The notes under the pieces: generated by a model | What the model was told of the DNA's origin: nothing | The model's database searches: none | The model's input: the letters and a program-made list of their open reading frames with translations, nothing else | From: an uncultured delta proteobacterium | GTDB taxonomy: Bacteria > Desulfobacterota > Binatia > UBA9968 | NCBI GenBank assembly: GCA_963745035.1 | Contig: CAVUVW010000015.1 | Span: 288,001 to 352,000 of the forward strand | Direction of reading: 5' to 3' | Length of the DNA: 64,000 nt | Program-made: the position numbers and the translations under genes | Shown: positions 3,282-19,385 of the stretch, one piece after another | How positions within the stretch are numbered: the stretch's first letter is position 1 | How the letters are laid out: the number at the start of each line of letters is the position of its first letter

Positions 3282-4686
3282 ATGAATCATCTCGCAAACT
3301 TCCACCGTTCTTTAATCGGTGCATTCTTATTGCTTCTCCTTTGCACGGTGCCCGAAGTCTCCGGCCAATCGTCGATTCTCGGTGGCGCCCAAGGACGGCA
3401 ACCAAGTTATGGCGAACTGGAGAATTTTACGATTCTCTCCTACACCGATCTCGATGGCTGGGACCAAGCGGCCGAGTTTCGCATCAGCAAAGACGGCAAG
3501 CACGCCTATATTTCGAATTATCAAGGCTTCAGCATCGTCGACGTCAGCGATCCAGCTAAACCGCGCGATTATCTCCAAGGTCAAGAACCATCCCAGCGTG
3601 CAGAGCCAGTATATCGATGTGCTGGGAAATCTCTTAGTCATCAATCAGGACGGAGTGCGTGACCAAAAGACCTGGGAAGGCGGCATCCGCCTCTATGATA
3701 TCAGCGATCCGGCCAAGCCGCGTGAGACTGCATTTTTCAAAACCGACGTGTCGCCGCGCCGAGGCGTCCATGGATTTTGGCTGCACGAAGATCCCAAAGC
3801 AAGGAAAGTTCGCTTTCATTGCCACCACCAAGGAAGGCTACTACGATAATATTTTGATGATCATCGACATCAACGATCCCGCCAATCCGAAAGAAGTCGC
3901 GCGCTGGTGGTTTCCCGGGCAATGGACCGCCGGAGGCGAAAAACCGGGAGAAGATTGGGTCGAGCCGGACGGCGGCCTGCGTCAAGGGCTGCCGAAAATC
4001 TGGGTCGCGCTGCACGACATCACGACTTACAAAGACCGCGCCTACCTCGCCTATCGCGACCAAGGCGTGATCATTCTGGATATCAGCGACGTGCGCAAGC
4101 CGACCATGATCAGCCAGATCAAATGGTCGCCGCCCGAAGAGGGAAACACGCACAGCATCGGCATCGTAGTTCCGTCGCACGGCGGCAGGCCCGATATCAT
4201 TGTCGCCGGGGACGAGATTAGTCCGTCCCGAAAATTGTCCCTTCGGGTACATGCACATGATCGACGTCCGCAACGAGAAAAATCCGGTGCAGATTTCGAC
4301 ATTCAGGCTGCCCTTGAACAAGTTCTGTCCTCCTGATCGTCCCGGCCGCCGCTTTGGCATCCACGATGTCGACCGGATGATCAAAGGGGAATATCGTTTT
4401 CAGCGCCTGGGAGAATTCCGGCTTTTGGGCCGTCGACATTTCCGATCCTCACGCGCCTAAGGCCGTCGGCCATTTCGTGCCGCCGGTGTTTCGCCGAGTG
4501 AATTCGGACGCCGGCCACGCCGACGATGTTTTCGTGCACGACAACGGCTTGGTTTTCTTCAGCTCGTCCGATCCCGGCGGCGGCTTCTGGATTACGCGCT
4601 ACACGCCCGGCGTAAAAGGGACGGTGTCGTGGACGCCGGATAATAAAAATGTCACCGTGAAGTATGAGAAGCGGCAGGAGAATTGA
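3282..4686 (+). CDS. Exported LVIVD-repeat beta-propeller protein (about 4 frameshifts, probably sequencing errors)
   Basis: Repeats FSIVDVSDPAKP, IRLYDISDPAKP, LMIIDINDPANP, VIILDISDVRKP, MHMIDVRNEKNP and FWAVDISDPHAP across consecutive ORF fragments; signal peptide; strong RBS. Confidence 0.85.
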
Positions 4687-5094
4687 TTCAAGGCGGACTG
4701 CTTCCACTACTGTCGTTCGTCTCTCTTGCTCCCAGTCGCGGCTCTTGCCGGTCATGGAATTGAAGACACCATCGACATGCTTCCCGCGGAAAGGGTGAAG
4801 CAGCTCATGGATGCCGGCGAGAAGCTTGTCTTTATCGACATGCGCCCGGCGAAGGAGTATCAGCAGAATCGATTGCCGGGAGCGCGCTCGCTGCCGATCG
4901 CCGAAGTGGCGAACCGCTTTAGTGAGATCCCGAAAAGCGGCCGCGTGGTTCTCTACTGCGACTGCAAGACCTACGACATCGCCGATCGCGCCGTGTTCCT
5001 GGAGTATCGCGGCTATCGAAATATTTTCGTCATGCCGGAAGGTTATTCGGGCTGGGTGAAGCGCGGCTATCCGATCGAAACCAAATCTCGCTGA
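4683..5094 (+). CDS. Exported single-domain rhodanese with C-x-C active-site loop (start uncertain)
   Basis: FIDMRPAKEY...RLPGA...VVLYCDC...GYRNIFVMPEGYSGWVKRGYP; hydrophobic N-terminus ending ALA-GHG. The ORF track starts at 4726; a TTG at 4683 plus one indel gives a fuller signal peptide. Confidence 0.82.
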
Positions 5095-5450
5095 TGATTC
5101 GGTGGAGCGCCGCTCTATTCTTGTCGTTGCTAGCGCCGTCGCCGCTTTCGGCTCACGCCTATCTGGTCAAATCCGTCCCCGCCCAGCGCGCCGTGTTGTT
5201 CCGCGCGCCGGATAAGATCCAACTCTGGTTCAACGAACGCCTAGAGCCGCGCTATTCCTCGATCACGGTGAGCGACGCCGAGGGCAGGCCGGTGGACGCC
5301 GGCAAAGCCGAGGTCAACGCGCAAGATCCTAAGCAGCTCTCCGCGTCGATCAAATCCCTGCCTGCCGGCCGCTATTTCGTCAAATATCGCGTGCTCTCGG
5401 TCGACGGTCACATCGTTCAAGATCAATTTCCCTTCACCGTCAAACAATGA
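5094..5450 (+). CDS. copC: Periplasmic copper-binding protein CopC
   Basis: Signal peptide followed by mature N-terminal His (A-HAYLVKSVPA); C-terminal VLSVDGH motif; LWFNE. Confidence 0.92.
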   Translation: MIRWSAALFLSLLAPSPLSAHAYLVKSVPAQRAVLFRAPDKIQLWFNERLEPRYSSITVSDAEGRPVDAGKAEVNAQDPKQLSASIKSLPAGRYFVKYRVLSVDGHIVQDQFPFTVKQ

Positions 5451-7460
5451 CCGACCTTGCGGCAGTCGTTCGATTTGTTCATGTGACGGCTGCCGTGCTT
5501 TTAGCCGGTGCTTTCAGCTTCACCTTGCTCATCGCGCGGCCGGCCTTTCGGCGTGCTGGCCGATGAATCGCGCGCTGAATTCGCGGCGTTCTTGCATATT
5601 CAGTTGCGCATCGCCCGCTGGTGCTGGCTCGCGCTCGTCGCATCCGCTTTGCTTGGGCTCTGGCTGCAAACCGCCGCAGTCAGCGAGTCCGCCGATTTTC
5701 GCGGAATTCTTACTCTCCTCCGGGAAACGCAGTACGGCAACGTCTGGTCGGCGCGGCTGATCCTAGCGCTCATCTTGCCACTTATATTTCGGTTCGAGTC
5801 GAAGCGCCGCGGAAACGATGCCGGCATTCTTACCGTGGTCGGATTTATTCTAAGCGCTGCTTTGCTCGCATCGCTGGCGCTCGCAGGCCACGCCGCCGCT
5901 GCCGAAGGTAGAGCGCTGATCGCCCAGGTCTCAGTCGATGCTCTGCACCTTCTGGCCGCGGGAATCTGGCTCGGCGGTCTTCTGCCGCTTGCCCTCATGC
6001 TGCGCGAATGCAACCGCAAAAGCGCTGCTGTGACACTTGCCGTCGCCGGGGCAGCGACACAGCGTTTTTCTACTCTCGCGATGGTATGCGTCGGCACCGT
6101 AATGGTGACCGGCGCCTACAACGCGTGGACGTTGGTTGGTGGCTTTCCGCCTTTGTTTGGCACCGCTTATGGCCGGTTGCTGCTGCTGAAACTTGCTTTG
6201 CTCTTGCCACTGCTCGCTGTCGCGGCCGTGAATCGCTTGCGGTTTAAGCCGAAAGTCGTCGAAGCAAGTTCCTATCAAAGCAACTCAACGCTCGTGAGAA
6301 AACTCATCCACAACGTCTTTCTGGAAACAAGTCTCGGCGTCGGCATTTTGCTTATCGTCGGCTATATGGGTGTCACGCCGCCGGCGCGTCACGTCCAAGT
6401 GGACTGGCCGTTTTCAACGCGCTGGGATTGGAGCGTGCTGGACAAAGCGCCCAAGGCCCAAGCAGAAGTCGAGCGCGGTATTGTTTGGGCGGCGATCGGC
6501 GGCGTCGCCCTGATAACCACTCTGGTGCGGCGCCGTCGTCGGATCGTGACGGCTGTCATTGGACTCGGCGCGTTAGCGTACGCCGGCCGCGTGGCGGTCG
6601 ATGCGGTTTCCACCGACGCTTATCCGACCACCTACAAGCGTCCGGCCGTGGCCTATCAAGCGATCTCCGTCGCCAACGGCAAGCAGCTTTACGAGGATAC
6701 CAGCTGCGTCTCCTGCCACGGACCGGCCGGCTATGGCGACGGACCACTGGCGGAGGAGTTGCGCCCCAAACCCGCCGATCTCACCGCGCCTCACGCCAAC
6801 ACGCACACCGCCGGCGATCTTTTTTGGTGGGTCAGCCATGGCGTCAAAAATACCTCGATGCCGGGCTTCGAGCAGAGCCTCGGCGAAGAGGAGCGCTGGG
6901 ATCTGATCAATTTCATGCGCGCGCTATCGACCGGCGACCGCGCGCGCTCCCTCGCGCCGGTCATCGAGAACGAGCCCTGGCTCATCGCGCCGGATTTCAC
7001 TTACGTGACGAATGCCGGTGAAGCCAAGACGCTCCGAGATCACCGGGGCGCCAGAATCGTCCTGCTGATCTTGCTCGATGTGAAAGCAACGGAGCAGCGT
7101 CTGAAGGAGCTCGTTGGCGCCTTACCCGCCCTCCGATCGGGAAATGTCGAGGTGATCGTAATTCCCAATCTCATCGACCTGCAAAACGTAGCCGATCGCC
7201 TGCCGGGACTCATCGTCAGCGAAGGCATCCGGGAAATCTCCGAAACCTACAAGCTGTTCGCTCGCTCCTTCTCCGATGAAGGCCTGGTCAGCGGCACGCG
7301 CCATGTGGAATTTCTGATCGACAAACAAGGCTACATCCGCGCCCGCTGGCTGCCGGCGGAGAACGAAGGCTGGAAGAGGATTGAGATCTTACTCAAGCAA
7401 ATCGATCTGCTGCGCAAGGAAAGACCTCGCGCTCCCGCGCCCGATGAGCATGTGCATTAG
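5447..7460 (+). CDS. copD: CopD-family copper transport membrane protein fused to a cytochrome c domain and a C-terminal redoxin-like domain (frameshift near 5560)
   Basis: ATG 5447 overlaps the copC stop. CopD motifs LAGHA, LHLLAAGIWLGGL, RFS and TAYGRLLLLKL; heme motif CVSCH with distal MPGF; C-terminal APDF...FLIDKQGYIRARW. Confidence 0.85.
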
Positions 7461-12966: not shown

Positions 12967-14248
12967 ATGCAACTGACCTTGGCCAATCATCCGATCACAA
13001 ACATGCGCTTCGGCGCGCCGGCGCGCCTCGAAGGCACCGATCTGGTCGTCGATGCCGACGAGCTGCGCCGTATCGTGCTCGACGACGATGCCGTCGTCAG
13101 CGTCGACTTCGAAATCGTTCGTCCGGGCGAGAGCTGCCGCGCCGGGCCGATCTTCGATGTGATTGAACCGCGAGCCAAGGAGCCCGGCTACGGCGCCGAT
13201 TTCCCCGGCATTTTGGGCGCGCCGCTTACGGCGGGAATGGGCACGACACATGTTCTAAGCGGCGCGGCGGTATCGGTGCTCGCGGAAATCTCCCCGATCT
13301 TACGAGAAGCGCCACCGGGCGCGTTCTCGAAATGAGCGGCGCTCCGGCTGAGGCGAGCGCCGTATTCCGCGCTCACGCACCTGCTCGTGATTCCGCACAC
13401 CAAACCAGATTTGCCGCGCCAAGCGATTGAAAAAGCTTATCGCATCGCCGGCATTCGAGTCGCGGTGCGCTGTCGCGCGACTCGCTCTAAGACCGCGCCG
13501 CGGATCGCGGCACCAGTTCGAGCCGGTCGGGCCGGCGCGGCAAGCCGCGCAGGTCTGCCGCGCGTCGCCTACATCGGACAGATTTTTTCCCGCCAGCGCA
13601 AACCCGCCGTCGACGAGCCGATTCTTTACGGCGCCAATACCGACGGCATGCTGCCGATCATGCTCCATCCCGATGAATGGCTCGACGGCGCCATCGTGCC
13701 GTCGCTGCATTCATGGTTCGGCGGCACGGAAACTTATTTCTATCAGAATCATCCGATCATTCTCGATCTCTATCGGCGCCATCAGGCGCGCGAAATAAAT
13801 TTCGTCGGCACGGTCGCCACCATCGCCGGCTCGGACAATTTCGACCGCGAGCGCCACTGCAAGGCGGCCGCCAATCTGGTGAAATGGAATTTGCAAGCCG
13901 ACGGCGCGGTGCTGTCCAAATACGGCGGCGGCTTGCCCCACGCCGATCTGGCGGAAACTGCGCGTCTGCTCGAAGACATGGGCGATAAAAACGGCGGTGA
14001 TGGTTTCCGACGTGTCGCGCGACCGGCGAGTCGAGTCGGCGCTGCTTTTCAATGTCCCGGAAGTCAACGCCATCGTCTACAACGGCGGCAACGGCACGTA
14101 TTGGGAAGTGCCAAAAGTGGATCGCGTCGTCGCCGCGACCGCGGAATTTACCGAACTGCTGGCCGGCCCAATGAAGATCGACGCGGCCAATATCGTCGGC
14201 GTAACCAACCAGCAAGGCGCATCGAAAATGAGAGCATTGGTGTACTAG
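12967..14248 (+). CDS. Glycine/sarcosine/betaine reductase component B proprotein-like subunit (GrdE/GrdG/GrdI family); frameshifted
   Basis: IVRPGESCR...DVIEPRAK...FPG, LPRVAYI, LPIMLHPDEWLDGAI and YQNHPII..LY..H..EINFVG match the GrdE-type family. Confidence 0.82.
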
Positions 14249-14256
14249 AAGGCCAC

Positions 14257-14323
14257 GAGGCGAAAGGCGTGAGGCGTGAGTGAGGATTCATACTCATGCC
14301 TCGCGCCTCAAGCCTCATGCCTT
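14257..14323. repeat. Inverted heptamer tandem-repeat hairpin (GAGGCGT)n...(CTCRYGC-like)n
   Basis: GAGGCGA AAGGCGT GAGGCGT GAGT ... ACTCATGC CTCGCGC CTCAAGC CTCATGC, between the grdE-like stop and the grdB-like RBS. Confidence 0.7.
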
Positions 14324-14334
14324 GAGGAGCTTCC

Positions 14335-15625
14335 ATGCGAGTCGCACATTACTTGAATCAGTTCTTCGGCGGCGTCGGCGCTGAGGAGCATGCCGGCAAG
14401 GGTTTGGAGATCCACGACGGCGCGGTCGGGCCCGGCCGGCTGCTGGAACAGTTGCTCGGCGGCAGACGCGCGCGTCGCATTGACTTTTGTCTGCGGCGAT
14501 AATTTCGCGGTCGAAAATCAAGATGAGTTGACCGCCGCCGTGCTGGAAAGGCTCCGCGCCGCGAGCATTGATCTGTTCGTCGCCGGTCCATGCTTCGATG
14601 CCGGACGCTACGGCATGGCGGCCGGCGCGCTTTGCCGCGCCGTGCAAAGCGAACTCAAGATTCCCGTAATCACCGCGATGAGCGAAGAAAATCCCGGCGT
14701 CGATCTCCACCGCGACGCGCTCTACATCATCGACTCGGGAACGAATGCGGCAAAAATGCGCGACGTGCTCGGCAAGATGGCCGAGCTCTCGGCCAGAAAC
14801 TTGTCGCCAACGCGCCGATCGGTTTGCCCGGCCGAGGAAGGCTATTTGCGGCGCGGTTGGCTGCGCGATCAACTGGTCGAAAAAACCGCGGCGACCCGGC
14901 TCGTCGACATGCTGCTTGGCGAAAATGAGCGGCGCGCCGTTCGAATCCGAAATGCCGGCCACGTCGTTCGCGCCCGTGCCGATACCGGCGGCGATGCAGG
15001 ATCTATCGAAAGCCAAGGTGATGTTGATCACCGACGGCGGCCTGGTTCCCAAGGGCAATCCGGATCGGATCGAGGGCACCGCCGCGACGCGTTGGGGCGC
15101 TTACAACATCGAAGGCCGCGACGATCTGCGCGGCGAAGAATACGAAGTTTCCCACGGCGGCTACGACACGCGATTTGTTCAGGAAGATCCCGATCGGCTG
15201 GTTCCGCTCGACGCCATGCGCGAGATGGAAAAGAACGGCGTCATCGGTAAGCTCCACGATGAATTCATTTCCACCTGCGGCCGCTCCAATCCGCTGTCGA
15301 ATACGCGCCGGCTCGGCCGGGAGATCGCCGACAAGATCAAGAAGGACGGCGTCGACGCGGTCATCCTTACGTCGACGTGAGGTACCAGCACTCGCAGCGG
15401 CGCTGCGATCACGACCGAGCTGGAGAAGGCGGGCATTCCCGGTCGTGCAAATCACCTCCGCCCTGCCGATTGCCAAAATGGTCGGCTCCAACCGGGTGGT
15501 TCTCGGCGACCGGCATCGTCCACGTGACCGGCGACGCCAAGCTTCCGCCCGCCGACGAAAAGGACCTGCGGCGAAAGTTCGTCCAGCAAGCGCTCGACGC
15601 GCTGCAGTCCGACAAGACACAGTAG
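14335..15625 (+). CDS. Glycine/betaine/sarcosine/D-proline family reductase selenoprotein B (GrdB-like); Sec UGA at 15378-15380, also frameshifted
   Basis: MRVAHYLNQFFGGVG, CGDN, AGRYG, MSEENPG, LITDGGLVPKGNPDRIE, HGGYD, DPDRLVPLD, then VDAVILTST-TGA-GTSTRSGAAITTELEKAGIP continuing in frame. The UGA sits at the family's known Sec position. Confidence 0.88.
15392..15408 (+). promoter_or_regulatory. Putative bacterial SECIS element of the GrdB-like gene
   Basis: Perfect stem TCGCAGC/GCTGCGA with a GGC loop, starting 11 nt after the in-frame UGA. Confidence 0.7.
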
Positions 15626-15783
15626 CCGCTCCTCGTTCTGAACGAGCTTCCCGGGATTGGCGTGAGGCGGGCAACGGGGCTTGCGTCAGCGTCAACCCTT
15701 GATTGCTCGCCTGCAGGTCACGCCGCGCTCTACACAAACGGTGAATTTATCGTTAGAATCTTCTCGGCCTGCAGTTTTTATTT

Positions 15784-16434
15784 ATGGATGCGTCAAAAAC
15801 CAAGTTTCTCTTGCTTGGCCTGGGCGTCGTCGGTCTGGGCATCGTCCTGGGCACCGCCCTTTGGCTCAGAGTCGGGGCGCCGCAGGGACCGTGGGGCCAC
15901 GCTTCGGGCAACTCGGCTGAGAGTCTCGAACAGTATGGCGCGGTGCCCGATTTCGCATTGACGGAAAGAAACGGCAATGCCGTCGGCCTCGACGAGCTGC
16001 GCGGCAAGATTTGGATCGCGGATTTTATCTACACGACCTGCACGGACACCTGCCCATTGCAGACCGCGATGATGGCCAAGCTCCAGCAAGAATATGCCCA
16101 CAAGCCTGAGGTACAGTTCGTTTCGTTTACGGTCGACCCGGAGCGGGACACGCCGGAAGTGCTGACGGCTTACGGCGCCAAACACCAAGCCGACGCCGCG
16201 CGCTGGTATTTCTTGACCGGCCGGCGCGATCGCATCATGCGCTTGATCCAGGATGGGTTTCACCTGGCGGTGGCGGCGCTGCCGGTCGATGCCGCGCCCG
16301 GCGGCATGATCCCGCACAGTCCGCGCTTTGTCTTGGTCGACAAGCAATCCCGCATCCGCGGCTACTATGACAGCCGCGACCTCGAGGCATTCGCGCGCCT
16401 CAAGAACCACATCGATACTTTGTTGAAGGGGTAG
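15784..16434 (+). CDS. SCO1/SenC family copper chaperone
   Basis: N-terminal TM anchor; FIYTTCTDTCP (CxxxC), FTVDPERDTPE and IPHS. Confidence 0.92.
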   Translation: MDASKTKFLLLGLGVVGLGIVLGTALWLRVGAPQGPWGHASGNSAESLEQYGAVPDFALTERNGNAVGLDELRGKIWIADFIYTTCTDTCPLQTAMMAKLQQEYAHKPEVQFVSFTVDPERDTPEVLTAYGAKHQADAARWYFLTGRRDRIMRLIQDGFHLAVAALPVDAAPGGMIPHSPRFVLVDKQSRIRGYYDSRDLEAFARLKNHIDTLLKG

Positions 16435-16440
16435 ATAGAG

Positions 16441-17313
16441 ATGGCCAACGAGAAAAGCAAGAAAGGCAAGCAACCGGCTGCCGCGGGACTCGTGCGCGAG
16501 GGGCCGAACTGGCCGCTGTTTGTGCTGGCGGTTCTCGGCATGGCCTTGTCGGGATATCTCACGTTTTCCGCGTGGCAAGGAGACCGCGCCGCGTTCTGCG
16601 CCGAAGGAGCCGGCTGTGATGTCGTGCTCAGCAGCCGCTGGGCGACGCTCCTAGGCATGCCGACCTCATTCTGGGGTTTTCTAACTTACGCGCTGCTCGG
16701 CGCCGTCGCGTGGAATCGCGATGCCGCCAATCAATGGCGCTGGGCTTGGGTGATTTCCCTGTTCGGTCTGTTTTTCAGTCTGTATTTAACCGGCGTCTCG
16801 TTTTTGTCATTGCAGGCAGCCTGCCCCTACTGCCTGGGTTCGCTCGGGCTGATGACGGCTATTTTTCTTCTGACGACGTTGCAGCGACCGAAGAACTTGC
16901 CGAAGTTTTCCTGGGGACCGTTCCTGGGAAAAAGCGTCGGTGCCGCGGCGCTCGTCATGATCGCGCTGCATCTGCACTACGCCGGCTACCTGGGCAGCGC
17001 TCCCAAACCCGAGGACCCCTGGATTCGCGCCTTGGCGGAGCATCTGTCCAAGACCGACGTGAAGTTTTACGGCGCCTCGTGGTGCCCTCACTGCACCGAG
17101 CAGAAACACCTCTTTGGCAGCTCGGAAAAGCGCATCCCTTATGTCGAATGCAGCCCGGGTGGATCCAAGGGACCCCAGGCGCCGGCTTGCAAGGAGAAAA
17201 ATATTCAGAGCTATCCGACCTGGATCATCAACGGACAGCGCTATACCGGCATCCAGCCGTTGGATGCGCTCGCGCGGTTCAGCAACTTTCAATATCAAGG
17301 AGACAAACGATGA
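16441..17313 (+). CDS. Vitamin K epoxide reductase (VKOR) family protein fused to a thioredoxin-like domain (disulfide-bond formation)
   Basis: C-x5-C..VLSS loop, CPYC in the TM region, then FYGASWCPHC, YVEC, AC..IQSYPTW. Same architecture as cyanobacterial VKOR-Trx. Confidence 0.92.
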   Translation: MANEKSKKGKQPAAAGLVREGPNWPLFVLAVLGMALSGYLTFSAWQGDRAAFCAEGAGCDVVLSSRWATLLGMPTSFWGFLTYALLGAVAWNRDAANQWRWAWVISLFGLFFSLYLTGVSFLSLQAACPYCLGSLGLMTAIFLLTTLQRPKNLPKFSWGPFLGKSVGAAALVMIALHLHYAGYLGSAPKPEDPWIRALAEHLSKTDVKFYGASWCPHCTEQKHLFGSSEKRIPYVECSPGGSKGPQAPACKEKNIQSYPTWIINGQRYTGIQPLDALARFSNFQYQGDKR

Positions 17314-17783
17314 TCGCGCTCCGGATGCAACAAAGCGGTGGCGCCGCTCTCGTGAGCTTGGCGCTGACAATTTTTTCGATCGGACCGGCGCACGCGGATC
17401 CTTCCAAATATCCGGCCTTCGCCCAGCAGTCGCTGCCGCAAGATATCAAGCCGGAATTTATCGGCATCGAGGATCTCGTCAAAGAGATCCAGGCGGGCGC
17501 CAAGCCGGTGATCATCGACGTGCGCACGGTCGAAGAATTTCACGAGGTGCATATTTTGGGCGCGGTTTCCGCCCCGCTCGCGGAGTTCAAGGATTATGTG
17601 AAGAGCATTCCGCGCGATCGCCCGGTCGTGCTCTATTGAGCTTGCCCCCATCACCTGGCCAGTCTGGCCTACGGCATGCTCTACGAAAACGGTTATCGCA
17701 ACATGAAGATCCTCGACGAAGGAATCGTCGGATGGTACCAAAAGCGCTATCCGATGGAAGGGACCAAAACGCCCCGCTCCTGA
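17310..17783 (+). CDS. Exported rhodanese-like selenoprotein with a U-x-C active site; Sec UGA at 17637-17639
   Basis: AAGGAGA RBS and ATGA overlap with VKOR; signal peptide ..GPAHA; IIDVRT.EEF..HILGA; VVLY-TGA-ACPHHLASLAYGMLYENGYRNMKILDEGIVGWYQKRYP completes the rhodanese fold in frame; the second stop lies 3 nt before queC. Confidence 0.85.
17640..17679 (+). promoter_or_regulatory. Putative bacterial SECIS element of the rhodanese gene
   Basis: Apical stem GGCCA/TGGCC (17657-17669) with a GTC loop (G is 23 nt after the UGA); lower stem GCTTGCC/GGCATGC. Confidence 0.6.
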
Positions 17784-17786
17784 GCT

Positions 17787-18483
17787 ATGGCCGCTAAGAA
17801 CGCCGTGATCCTGCTGAGCGGCGGCATCGACTCCGCCACCGCCGCCGCCGTCGCGAAACGGGACGGCTACGATCTGCATGCGTTGACCTTCCACTACGGC
17901 CAGCGCCACGAGCGGGAGATCGAGTGCGCCGGGAAAATTGCCGCATTCTTGGGGGCAAAAACACAAAAGGTCATGCGCTTCGACTTGCGAGCGATCGGCG
18001 GCTCCGCTCTCACCGACGACATCGCGGTGCCCAAGGAACGGAGCGAGGACGAGATCGCGGCCGGCGTGCCGATGACCTACGTGCCGGCGCGCAACACCAT
18101 CTTTCTGTCGTTCGCATTGGCGCTCGCCGAGCGCATCGGCTCCCAGGATATTTTTTTCGGCGCCAACCAATTGGACTACAGCGGCTATCCGGATTGCCGC
18201 GACGAATACATCCGGGCGTTTGAAAAAATGGCGAATCTGGCCACCAAGGCCGGAGTGGAGGGCAAGAGCCGGATGAGCGTTCACGCGCCGCTACTGCAAA
18301 TGACCAAGGCGGAGATCGTCAAGCTCGGTGATTCCCTCGGTCTTGACTTCGGTTTGACCTGGAGCTGCTACGATCCGCGACCGGGCGGGCGGGCGTGCGG
18401 CCAGTGCGACAGCTGCCGGCTCCGGCTGAAGGGCTTCCGCGAAGCCGGCCGCAGTCGATCCGCTCGCCTACGCCGAAGACTGA
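17787..18483 (+). CDS. queC: 7-cyano-7-deazaguanine synthase QueC (indel near 18450 fuses it artefactually to the next gene)
   Basis: LLSGGIDS, YGQRH, TYVPARN, YSGYPDCR and TWSCY...CGQCDSC; the canonical end VDPLAYAED* lies in the shifted frame. Confidence 0.93.
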
Positions 18484-18494
18484 AGTGTTTGTCC

Positions 18495-19385
18495 ATGTTG
18501 TCCACTCCGTTCACCGCCGAATTTCTCAGTCAGCTCGAAGCGCTGCGCTTGCGCACGCGAAAGGAATTTCTCGGCAGCCACCCGGGCAGCTACTCTTCAC
18601 CGCGGCGCGGCACGAGCTTGGAGTTTTCCGACTATCGCCGCTACTCTCCCGGCGACGATCTGCGCTACATCGATTGGGGCATCTACGCGCGCAGCGACCG
18701 GCTGTTCATCAAAGTTTTTCGCCAGGAAGTCGATCTCTTCGCCTACGTCTTCATCGACACCAGCGCGTCGATGGCGTTTCCCTCGCGCGCGGAGAAATTC
18801 TTGCCCGCAAGCCATGTCGCGCTGGCGCTTTCCTACGTGGTCCTGGCCAATCACGATCACGTCAAGCTGCATTTGCTCCAAAACACGAGCAACACCGCGT
18901 CCCAGTTCTATCGCGGCCGGCGGCGCATGCGCGATTGCGTGGAATTTGCCACCTCCGCTGCCCCGGGCGGATCGCTGGATCTGGCGTTCGCGTTGAGCGA
19001 ACATCTCCAGCGGGTGCGCCGGCCCGGCAAGGCCATTCTGATTTCCGATTTCCTGATGCCGGCGGCGTCTTACCAGCAGGGACTCAACCTGCTGCGCGCG
19101 TCGAATCTCGATGTGGTGGCGATTCAGGTGCTGTCGCGCCACGAAGTCGATCCGCCCTTTCCCAACGGCAGCGTGGCGTTGATCGACAGCGAAAGTCAAA
19201 ATGAGATCAAGCATCAGTGGAGCGCGGCGGCGCGGCGCGAATACCAGGCGAGGCTCGCCCATCATAACTTGGAGATTCGCAGTTTCTGCCACCAGAGCGG
19301 CATGCACTATTCGCTCTACGTGACCGATCGCGATCTCGGCGATTTTGTCTTCGCCACCTTGCCGGCCATCGGCCTGTTCAAATAG
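18495..19385 (+). CDS. DUF58 family protein (MoxR-associated, VWA-like)
   Basis: GTSLEFSDYRRYSPGDDLRYIDW..YAR, IDTSASM and LISDF. Confidence 0.9.
   Translation: MLSTPFTAEFLSQLEALRLRTRKEFLGSHPGSYSSPRRGTSLEFSDYRRYSPGDDLRYIDWGIYARSDRLFIKVFRQEVDLFAYVFIDTSASMAFPSRAEKFLPASHVALALSYVVLANHDHVKLHLLQNTSNTASQFYRGRRRMRDCVEFATSAAPGGSLDLAFALSEHLQRVRRPGKAILISDFLMPAASYQQGLNLLRASNLDVVAIQVLSRHEVDPPFPNGSVALIDSESQNEIKHQWSAAARREYQARLAHHNLEIRSFCHQSGMHYSLYVTDRDLGDFVFATLPAIGLFK

Follow-up and report, generated by a model that had tools for sequence, protein, structure and literature searches.

A candidate selenocysteine-containing rhodanese family with a U-x-C active site, encoded beside SCO1 and VKOR-thioredoxin genes in uncultured Binatia

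Introduction

Catalytic rhodaneses (thiosulfate sulfurtransferases) have a six-residue loop, C-R-x-G-x-[R/T], after the catalytic residue. Rhodanese domains carrying selenocysteine (Sec, U) in the active-site loop have also been catalogued: three forms are given in a 2022 review (PMC9312934), and a 2026 review, its supplementary tables aside, gives five, that is, UxxS, UxxG, CxU, UxxG and UxxxxU, and places a Cu/Zn efflux transporter among UxC selenoproteins (PMC13188914). A UxC rhodanese is not among these five forms. Here, we have analyzed a stretch of 64,000 nucleotides (hereafter the window, to which all coordinates refer unless a contig or locus is named) from an uncultured delta proteobacterium of the class Binatia, corresponding to positions 288,001 to 352,000 of contig CAVUVW010000015.1 (assembly GCA_963745035.1), and we focus on one gene in it, at positions 17310-17783 of the plus strand. 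On the basis of comparative sequence analysis, this gene almost certainly represents a genuine selenoprotein gene, whose product would be an exported rhodanese-like protein with UGA-encoded Sec in place of the catalytic Cys and a further Cys at +2 (U-x-C-P-[H/R]-H), and whose coding sequence would contain a Sec insertion sequence (SECIS) element recruiting SelB and Sec-tRNA.

Oxidase assembly factors contain Cu(I)-binding C-x-C motifs, such as the CFCF motif of Cox11. With regard to partners of Sco proteins, a study of CuA assembly describes that TlpA reduces ScoI and CoxII and that PCuAC donates Cu(I), beside Sco (PMC6696091). Among exported single-domain rhodaneses, Escherichia coli PspE is periplasmic and, with DsbC as its partner, can take the place of DsbA/DsbB in forming disulfides; this role belongs to redox chemistry rather than to sulfur transfer (PMC5403849). 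Our literature search found nothing relevant on a Sec rhodanese together with SCO1, or on selenoproteins of Binatia/Binatota, apart from possible mentions in the supplements of reviews.

Results and discussion

A UGA codon at the catalytic position of a rhodanese-like protein

When TGA was read as Sec, positions 17310-17783 (+) formed a single frame of 157 codons plus stop, that is, a complete gene for an exported single-domain rhodanese-like protein with the loop U110-A-C112-P-H-H. Under translation table 11, the open reading frame (ORF) ends at ...PVVLY-TGA. The initial annotation had claimed that this ORF halts exactly where rhodaneses carry the catalytic Cys, and that the same frame continues through ACPHH to a normal rhodanese C-terminus 3 nt before queC; both claims held. 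First, the U column (UGA at 17637-17639) coincided with the catalytic Cys column in profile alignments to solved rhodaneses (for example, YCRTGGRS of 3tp9). Second, the frame beyond the TGA reads A-C-P-H-H-L-A-S-L-A-Y...G-Y-R-N-M...E-G-I-V-G-W up to a terminal stop TGA at 17781-17783, and queC starts at 17787, 3 nt past this stop. The Pfam Rhodanese domain (PF00581) matched residues 57-144, across the TGA, with an E-value of 1.4e-15 and 58 bits (gathering score 22.2). The AlphaFold model (predicted local distance difference test score, pLDDT, 84.4) was that of an ordinary single-domain rhodanese, and the closest solved folds found by Foldseek were the single-domain rhodaneses 3nhv, 6mxv and 3tp9 (E-values down to 5e-9). 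The codons for C112-P113-H114-H115 (17643-17654, +) provide the partner Cys at +2 followed by P-[H/R]-H; C112, P113 and H115 were at least 90% conserved in alignment A2, and position 114 was either His or Arg. The classic C-R-x-G-x-[R/T] loop was matched neither by U-A-C-P-H-H in the window nor by U-x-C-P-R-H in family f3 of the same order.

Conservation of the TGA and its alternation with Cys codons

The gene was searched for in 61 genomes of the same order, its own included, with an E-value of 1.8e-28 or lower taken as an orthologue-level match; two unpublished assemblies (G005 and G035) lie in part behind the counts, and the conclusions are unchanged without them. Orthologues could be identified in 44 of the 61 genomes, 43 of them with TGA and one (G036) with none, and this query found no orthologue in the remaining 17 genomes, including 9 of the 19 genomes of family f3. 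In all 43 TGA-bearing orthologues, which represent three families of the order and share protein identity down to 38%, the TGA occupied the identical column within the context L-Y-U-x-C-P-[H/R]-H-L-[A/S]-x-L-A-[Y/F], and the protein downstream was strongly conserved. A TGA column shared by 43 of 43 sequences is far beyond chance. The G036 orthologue (L049/L107) has retained its signal peptide and its neighbours VKOR and queC but reads G-N-R where the others have U-x-C, even though SelA is encoded in the genome; its active site is thus a natural example of a 'dead' one.

A second scan, of a public collection with one genome per species (80 loci, overlapping the 61-genome set), showed that the column is TGA in 63 species, TGC in 16 and GGA in one, so that the alternation of TGA with Cys codons, which the initial annotation had proposed to look for, was indeed present. 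Taxon labels of the TGA forms were mostly 'Candidatus Binatia' or older deltaproteobacterial names, plus one Entotheonella, and the TGC forms (YCACPHH) belonged to Kofleriaceae/Myxococcota, Rokubacteria/Methylomirabilota and WOR-3. Natural Cys homologues were also observed among database proteins (P0055, full-length with CACPHH, and P0253), and the paralogue encoded elsewhere in the window likewise has Cys in this column. In a quick tree built from 80 rows of 108 columns, without the truncated loci L100 and L102 and with the careful search unfinished, the Cys forms of Kofleriaceae and WOR-3 fell outside a group comprising all Sec forms and two Rokubacterial Cys forms. Three changes of the Sec/Cys label are needed on this tree, which is compatible with one or with several origins of Sec.

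Sec machinery, base calls and genetic code

The genome encodes the full set of Sec components whose presence the initial annotation had advised confirming: a tRNA-Sec gene (selC; 76.7 bits, anticodon TCA), selA, selB (with the SelB wing domain) and selD, the last with an in-frame TGA of its own. SelA was also found in 56 of the 61 genomes of the order, and its co-occurrence with the gene is therefore non-discriminating. Contigs of two DNA-library and two RNA-library runs from four studies bridge 17637-17639 without any difference, and the differences near the TGA in those contigs (17642, 17645, 17672 and 17684) were all synonymous. An error in the base calls at the TGA, a concern of the initial annotation, is thus ruled out; because the evidence consists of contigs and RNA libraries may hold DNA, expression is not proven by it. 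In addition, TGA is the terminal codon of the VKOR gene upstream and of the rhodanese gene itself, so that there is no global reassignment of TGA in this genome, and an alternative genetic code was rejected.

A conserved hairpin downstream of the UGA

Bacterial SECIS elements are stem-loops located shortly 3' of the UGA, with G/U in the apical loop, and bSECISearch applies a spacing rule to them. The hairpin with a G-led loop reported in the initial annotation does exist. In the minimum-free-energy fold, a SECIS-like stem-loop spans 17638-17681 (+), with an upper helix (17657-17661 paired with 17665-17669), the loop GUC (17662-17664) and a lower helix (17638-17646 paired with 17673-17681). The hairpin proper, GGCCA-GUC-UGGCC (17657-17669), begins 17 nt after the UGA, and the lower stem takes in the GA of the UGA. 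Across 42 distinct sequences the upper helix was 98.6% paired, and the lower helix was kept only within the genus. The two varying positions of the hairpin were the loop base (GUY) and the closing pair (G-C or G-U).

Codon usage in this region was nearly invariant at synonymous sites. In the 43 Sec orthologues, the synonymous entropy of codons 115-120 was 0-0.9 bit, compared with mostly 1-2 bits at four- and six-fold codons elsewhere; the codons used were CAC in 42 of 43, YTG only, GCC in 39 of 39, AGT in 39 of 39, YTG only, and GCC or GCT only. The Rokubacterial Cys form L111 encodes the same H-H-L-A-S-L-A-Y by CTC GCG AGC CTC GCC, with which the hairpin cannot form. Since the synonymous sites are frozen in the Sec forms and this Cys form uses other codons without a hairpin, we read the pattern as a constraint at the RNA level specific to the UGA forms, that is, a putative SECIS element. 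In the subclade with H-L-S-R-L-A-F (one sequence folded), a shifted 7-bp hairpin with a bulged U and the loop GUCC was predicted.

The summed depth of metagenome contigs rose about four-fold over positions 17615-17696 only (X1: 28-33 versus 7.5). Short contigs from other organisms were found to share at least 90% identity with this SECIS/active-site region. These cross-organism matches illustrate the conservation of this region at the nucleotide level.

Relationship to known rhodaneses and current annotation

The predicted U-x-C Sec-rhodanese is the mirror image of the C-x-U form, and as such a putative sixth form that is uncatalogued. The best-scoring curated family was NF041203, 'rhodanese_LYCAU' (rhodanese-related (seleno)protein), which corresponds to the CxU 'rhodanese-like form 3' of the 2026 review (PMC13188914). 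Like the Sec rhodanese, NF041203 members are small rhodanese domains whose active-site loop has a chalcogen residue at both i and i+2 and then a Pro. However, NF041203 has C-A-U, whereas the Sec rhodanese has U-A-C, so that in the latter Sec takes the catalytic position and Cys follows at +2; its loop continues with P-[H/R]-H-L-A-S rather than P-D/N-E, and it has a predicted signal peptide and a SCO1/VKOR context. Its scores, 60.1 bits by hmmscan and 53.3 bits in the genome scan, were well below the cut-off of 115, whereas a true NF041203 member in a relative (FYCAUPDEF) reached 151.5 bits. Forms 1, 2 and 4 (UxxS, UxxG) and form 5, TsoB (UxxxxU), are likewise rhodanese domains with Sec in the active-site loop; going by the motifs tabulated in the review, U-A-C-P is a UxxP with Cys at +2 and is thereby set apart from forms 1, 2 and 4 (PMC13188914). 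TsoB (NF045694) is a rhodanese/DsbD fusion, unlike the single-domain Sec rhodanese, which scored 17.9 bits against its cut-off of 805. PspE resembles the Sec rhodanese in being an exported periplasmic single-domain rhodanese but contains only one Cys and lacks both Sec and the +2 Cys; the Sec rhodanese scored 28.2 bits against cut-offs of 102 and 126.3.

The initial annotation had suggested that gene callers truncate this protein and that the family is unannotated, and current databases agree with both statements. A database protein search gave 654 matches; among the best 120, 118 were only 97-112 aa long, and the two inspected end at ...VVLY. Among the same 120, one entry (P0004) reads W at the TGA position and P0055 is a natural Cys form. 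The matches listed are named 'hypothetical protein' or 'rhodanese-like domain-containing protein'. No NCBIfam model reached its cut-off for the Sec rhodanese, the best being NF041203, and UxC is absent from the five forms of the review outside its supplementary tables (PMC13188914). A profile search of 1.84 billion representatives was swamped by multi-rhodanese proteins, P0137 and P0253 being the only useful single-domain rows. Thus, selenoprotein catalogues and NCBI annotation models appear to miss the U-x-C family, leaving hundreds of public gene calls cut off immediately ahead of the active site.

Export

Signal peptides were judged by heuristic reading of the sequence and hydropathy. The gene begins with a predicted Sec-type (secretory) signal peptide of 29 residues (17310-17396, +), with an Arg in the n-region, a hydrophobic core and A-H-A, followed by the mature N-terminus, which is conserved as D-P-x-K-Y-P. 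A signal peptide of the same design was predicted in every orthologue with a complete N-terminus (10-residue hydropathy maximum 1.9-3.85), in line with the exported form first proposed for this gene; most orthologues have AxA at -3/-1, some differ at -3, and AxG/AxS occurs in family f3. Kofleriaceae proteins with the Cys form (YCACPHH) combine two cytochrome c domains with a C-terminal rhodanese domain (L126:2242-3363 and L128:2275-3429), and this fusion to a di-haem cytochrome c places the rhodanese domain outside the cytoplasm independently of signal peptides.

Operon and copper-gene neighbourhood

Immediately upstream lies a gene for a VKOR membrane domain fused to a thioredoxin-like domain with CPHC (16441-17313, +; Pfam VKOR, E-value 4.2e-24). 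Its stop TGA overlaps the rhodanese ATG as ATGA, and the rhodanese gene is predicted from this overlap to be translationally coupled to it. It is preceded by a SCO1/SenC copper chaperone gene (15784-16434, +; Pfam SCO1-SenC, E-value 4.5e-29), whose product has a membrane anchor and C-x-x-x-C plus His. This arrangement is widely conserved: among the 63 TGA-form loci, VKOR is directly upstream of the Sec gene in 56, SCO1 is upstream in 53 and both are in 52, several of the exceptions being contig ends. The downstream queC was found in 41 of the 63 loci, in family f1 only. In family f2, VKOR is gone and SCO1 still precedes the Sec gene; a thioredoxin-like remnant between the two in L106 was considered and rejected, as there is no ORF of 60 aa or more there. 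In family f3, the gene before SCO1 has a CtaG/Cox11 domain in two closed genomes and in 12 of 15 f3-type loci overall; the other three comprise one split Cox11 match, one contig end and one locus without Cox11. In addition, PCuAC, which commonly serves as the soluble donor of Cu(I), was not found in the organism's own genome (92.6% complete), and only one of the 61 genomes searched, closed genomes included, contained it.

The Cox11/CtaG domain of family f3 lies within a protein of 512-572 residues that also has a DUF4382 domain (L172:4658-6196 and L173:8685-10403), and in some f1 genomes only the DUF4382-like part occurs upstream of SCO1. The own genome also contains tandem Cox11/DUF4382-like and SCO1-like genes (G000:C14:346683-351986) and six SCO1-family matches in total.

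The Cys-x-Cys paralogue and other rhodaneses of the genome

The window contains a Cys-x-Cys paralogue (VVLYCDC) that is 30% identical to the Sec rhodanese. The initial annotation was right about its existence; its placement at 4683-5094 could not be kept, as that interval contains stops, and the ORF is 4726-5094 (+). The paralogue heads a cluster with CopC (5094-5450, +) and CopD fused to a cytochrome c domain (5508-7460, +), within a region at 3659-7460 (+) that comprises an LVIVD-repeat protein, the paralogue, CopC and CopD-cytochrome c. Eight further genomes of the genus (L141-L148) show the same arrangement, LVIVD-paralogue-CopC(-CopD).

Two C-x-U rhodanese domains with in-frame TGA were also observed in the own genome (G000:C10:50873-51190, - strand, and G000:C27:202997-203326, + strand). 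The membrane domains to which these two (LYCSUP and FCAUP) are attached are DedA-like and cation/proton-exchanger-like, and TGA-bearing orthologues occur in several relatives.

Proposed role and alternative explanations

The operon context, the scarcity of PCuAC, the paralogue in a CopC-CopD cluster, and the precedents of TlpA/PCuAC (PMC6696091) and PspE (PMC5403849) suggest that the Sec rhodanese may provide a selenol/thiol centre for SCO1/Cox11-dependent oxidase maturation. In such a scheme, the periplasmic U110/C112 pair would form the selenol/thiol centre and could close to a selenenylsulfide and/or bind Cu(I). Its partners would be the co-transcribed VKOR-thioredoxin protein, the SCO1 copper chaperone and, in one family, Cox11, and it would either maintain the redox state that the cysteines of the chaperone or oxidase require or pass Cu(I) on. 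The stage served would be the assembly of the copper centres of the haem-copper oxidase, as TlpA and PCuAC do in other bacteria. These two periplasmic partners of Sco are functional analogues rather than homologues, having thioredoxin and cupredoxin-like folds rather than a rhodanese fold, and the Sec gene sits where a Sco partner of their type would be encoded, a parallel drawn from the genes. A C-x-C pair is likewise found in Cox11 (CFCF), which belongs to this pathway but has an unrelated fold, and copper binding by U-x-C is putative. With respect to the role, which the initial annotation had left as redox, sulfur transfer or metal binding, the gene context (SCO1, Cox11 and VKOR-thioredoxin, with the CopC/CopD paralogue) would narrow it to copper-centre biogenesis.

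Taken as a whole, Sec decoding together with a copper/oxidase role is probably the best explanation of the locus. Several observations, however, weigh against it. The relatives are kin, and the counts are therefore non-independent events. For the hairpin, the lone fold is not significant (z -0.72), with 48 of 200 shuffles folding equally well, and it was thus rejected as evidence for a SECIS element; the hairpin takes its weight from conservation. Among the 42 distinct sequences, no compensatory change occurred in any upper-helix pair, and the sole pair changed on both sides belongs to the lower stem and is unpaired in 31 of the 42, with shuffles equalling the observed scores. RNAalifold on 43 sequences gave other weak pairs rather than the hairpin, and Rfam gave no match to the hairpin at an E-value of 10 or lower. 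For the role, the basis of a periplasmic centre serving copper delivery to the oxidase is the gene neighbourhood, and we regard this part of the explanation as evenly poised. The gene is present in just 10 of 19 genomes of family f3, where it is therefore not essential for respiration. No Cox11 gene is adjacent in the window, Cox11-like genes being on another contig. SCO1, VKOR and Cox11 are absent from the surroundings of all 16 Cys-form loci, whose neighbours are unrelated (Fur, ADH, Rho and PD40), the neighbourhoods in Kofleriaceae, Rokubacteria and WOR-3 containing no copper or redox genes. Finally, the His/Arg alternation at position 114 fits anion binding better than copper ligation.

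This alternation, at +4, also resembles the cationic cradle of rhodanese loops, which would favour a different explanation, namely that the protein is a real selenoprotein but an ordinary periplasmic sulfurtransferase, in which Sec110 would form a persulfide/selenosulfide from thiosulfate or polysulfide as in PspE or GlpE, the copper neighbours being incidental. Its fold and catalytic position are those of a canonical rhodanese, the C-x-U Sec-rhodanese domains of the same genome sit in unrelated fusions, and the Cys forms of other phyla are without copper neighbours. Nevertheless, the classic C-R-x-G-x-R loop is absent, and at least 90% of rows share a second chalcogen at +2. Moreover, the linkage to SCO1 and VKOR-thioredoxin holds down to about 40% identity and extends to Cox11 in family f3, the paralogue sits in a CopCD operon, and no sulfur-oxidation genes are adjacent in the annotated loci; we thus consider the sulfurtransferase unlikely.

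A general relay for oxidative folding appears quite improbable as well. Here, VKOR-thioredoxin would oxidize the U-x-C pair, from which disulfides would be handed on to a broad range of periplasmic proteins, as by DsbA or by PspE with DsbC, and copper would have no special part in this. Such a relay would agree with the coupling to the VKOR-thioredoxin gene, upstream in 56 of 63 loci, with the PspE precedent (PMC5403849), and with the Kofleriaceae fusion to a di-haem cytochrome c, which suggests electron flow from the CxC site; yet SCO1 remains next to the Sec gene in family f2 despite the loss of VKOR, family f3 has Cox11 as an additional cluster member, and absence from 17 of the 61 genomes of the order would be odd for a housekeeping folding catalyst. 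The last explanation, that translation really ends at the TGA (in a pseudogene, through an assembly error or between two ORFs) or that the codon specifies another residue under a variant code, could draw on gene callers ending there, on the W in P0004 and on the frame breaks in a neighbouring gene of the same assembly, which resembles that for glycine reductase component B (GrdB), but its chance is negligible. The single TGA column and conserved in-frame C-terminus in 43 of 43 orthologues refute it for practical purposes, and the identical base call in independent assemblies, the normal use of TGA as stop of the VKOR and rhodanese genes and the dedicated Sec machinery also speak against it.

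If the copper/oxidase role of the Sec rhodanese is true, selenium availability would be tied to copper handling and respiration in soils. The strongest version, which we put forward only tentatively and think somewhat doubtful, is that the Sec rhodanese would serve specifically to build the copper centres of haem-copper oxidases, the first selenoprotein with such a task, and that, as a soluble periplasmic protein, it would supply SCO1 and Cox11 with Cu(I) and/or reducing equivalents; the aerobic respiration of these soil bacteria would then depend on selenium. The protein is also a candidate for the missing soluble Sco/Cox11 partner in a PCuAC-poor soil lineage whose relatives are labelled Candidatus Binatia, and the widely conserved operon (SCO1, VKOR-thioredoxin, Sec-rhodanese and, in one family, Cox11) offers a setting in which selenium's role can be tested. 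Recognition of the family would add a sixth, mirror-image form to the Sec-rhodaneses, and the presence of C-x-U and U-x-C rhodaneses in one genome might define a general 'chalcogen pair' redox or metal site built on the rhodanese scaffold.

Other features of the window

Adjoining SCO1, the region at 13387-15700 (+) resembles glycine/sarcosine/betaine reductase B (Pfam Gly_reductase, GRDB). A TGA at 15378-15380, at the canonical '...ILTST-U-GT' site, marks a second selenoprotein gene, the frame of which is broken several times; the region is either a pseudogene or affected by assembly indels. On the other side, queC (residues 6-220) and a DUF58 protein (residues 282-494) share one ORF of 532 codons at 17787-19385 (+). 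In relatives, queC and DUF58 are separate genes, 80-400 nt apart, and the joint ORF reflects a fusion, unless the assembly contains an indel or has lost a stop.

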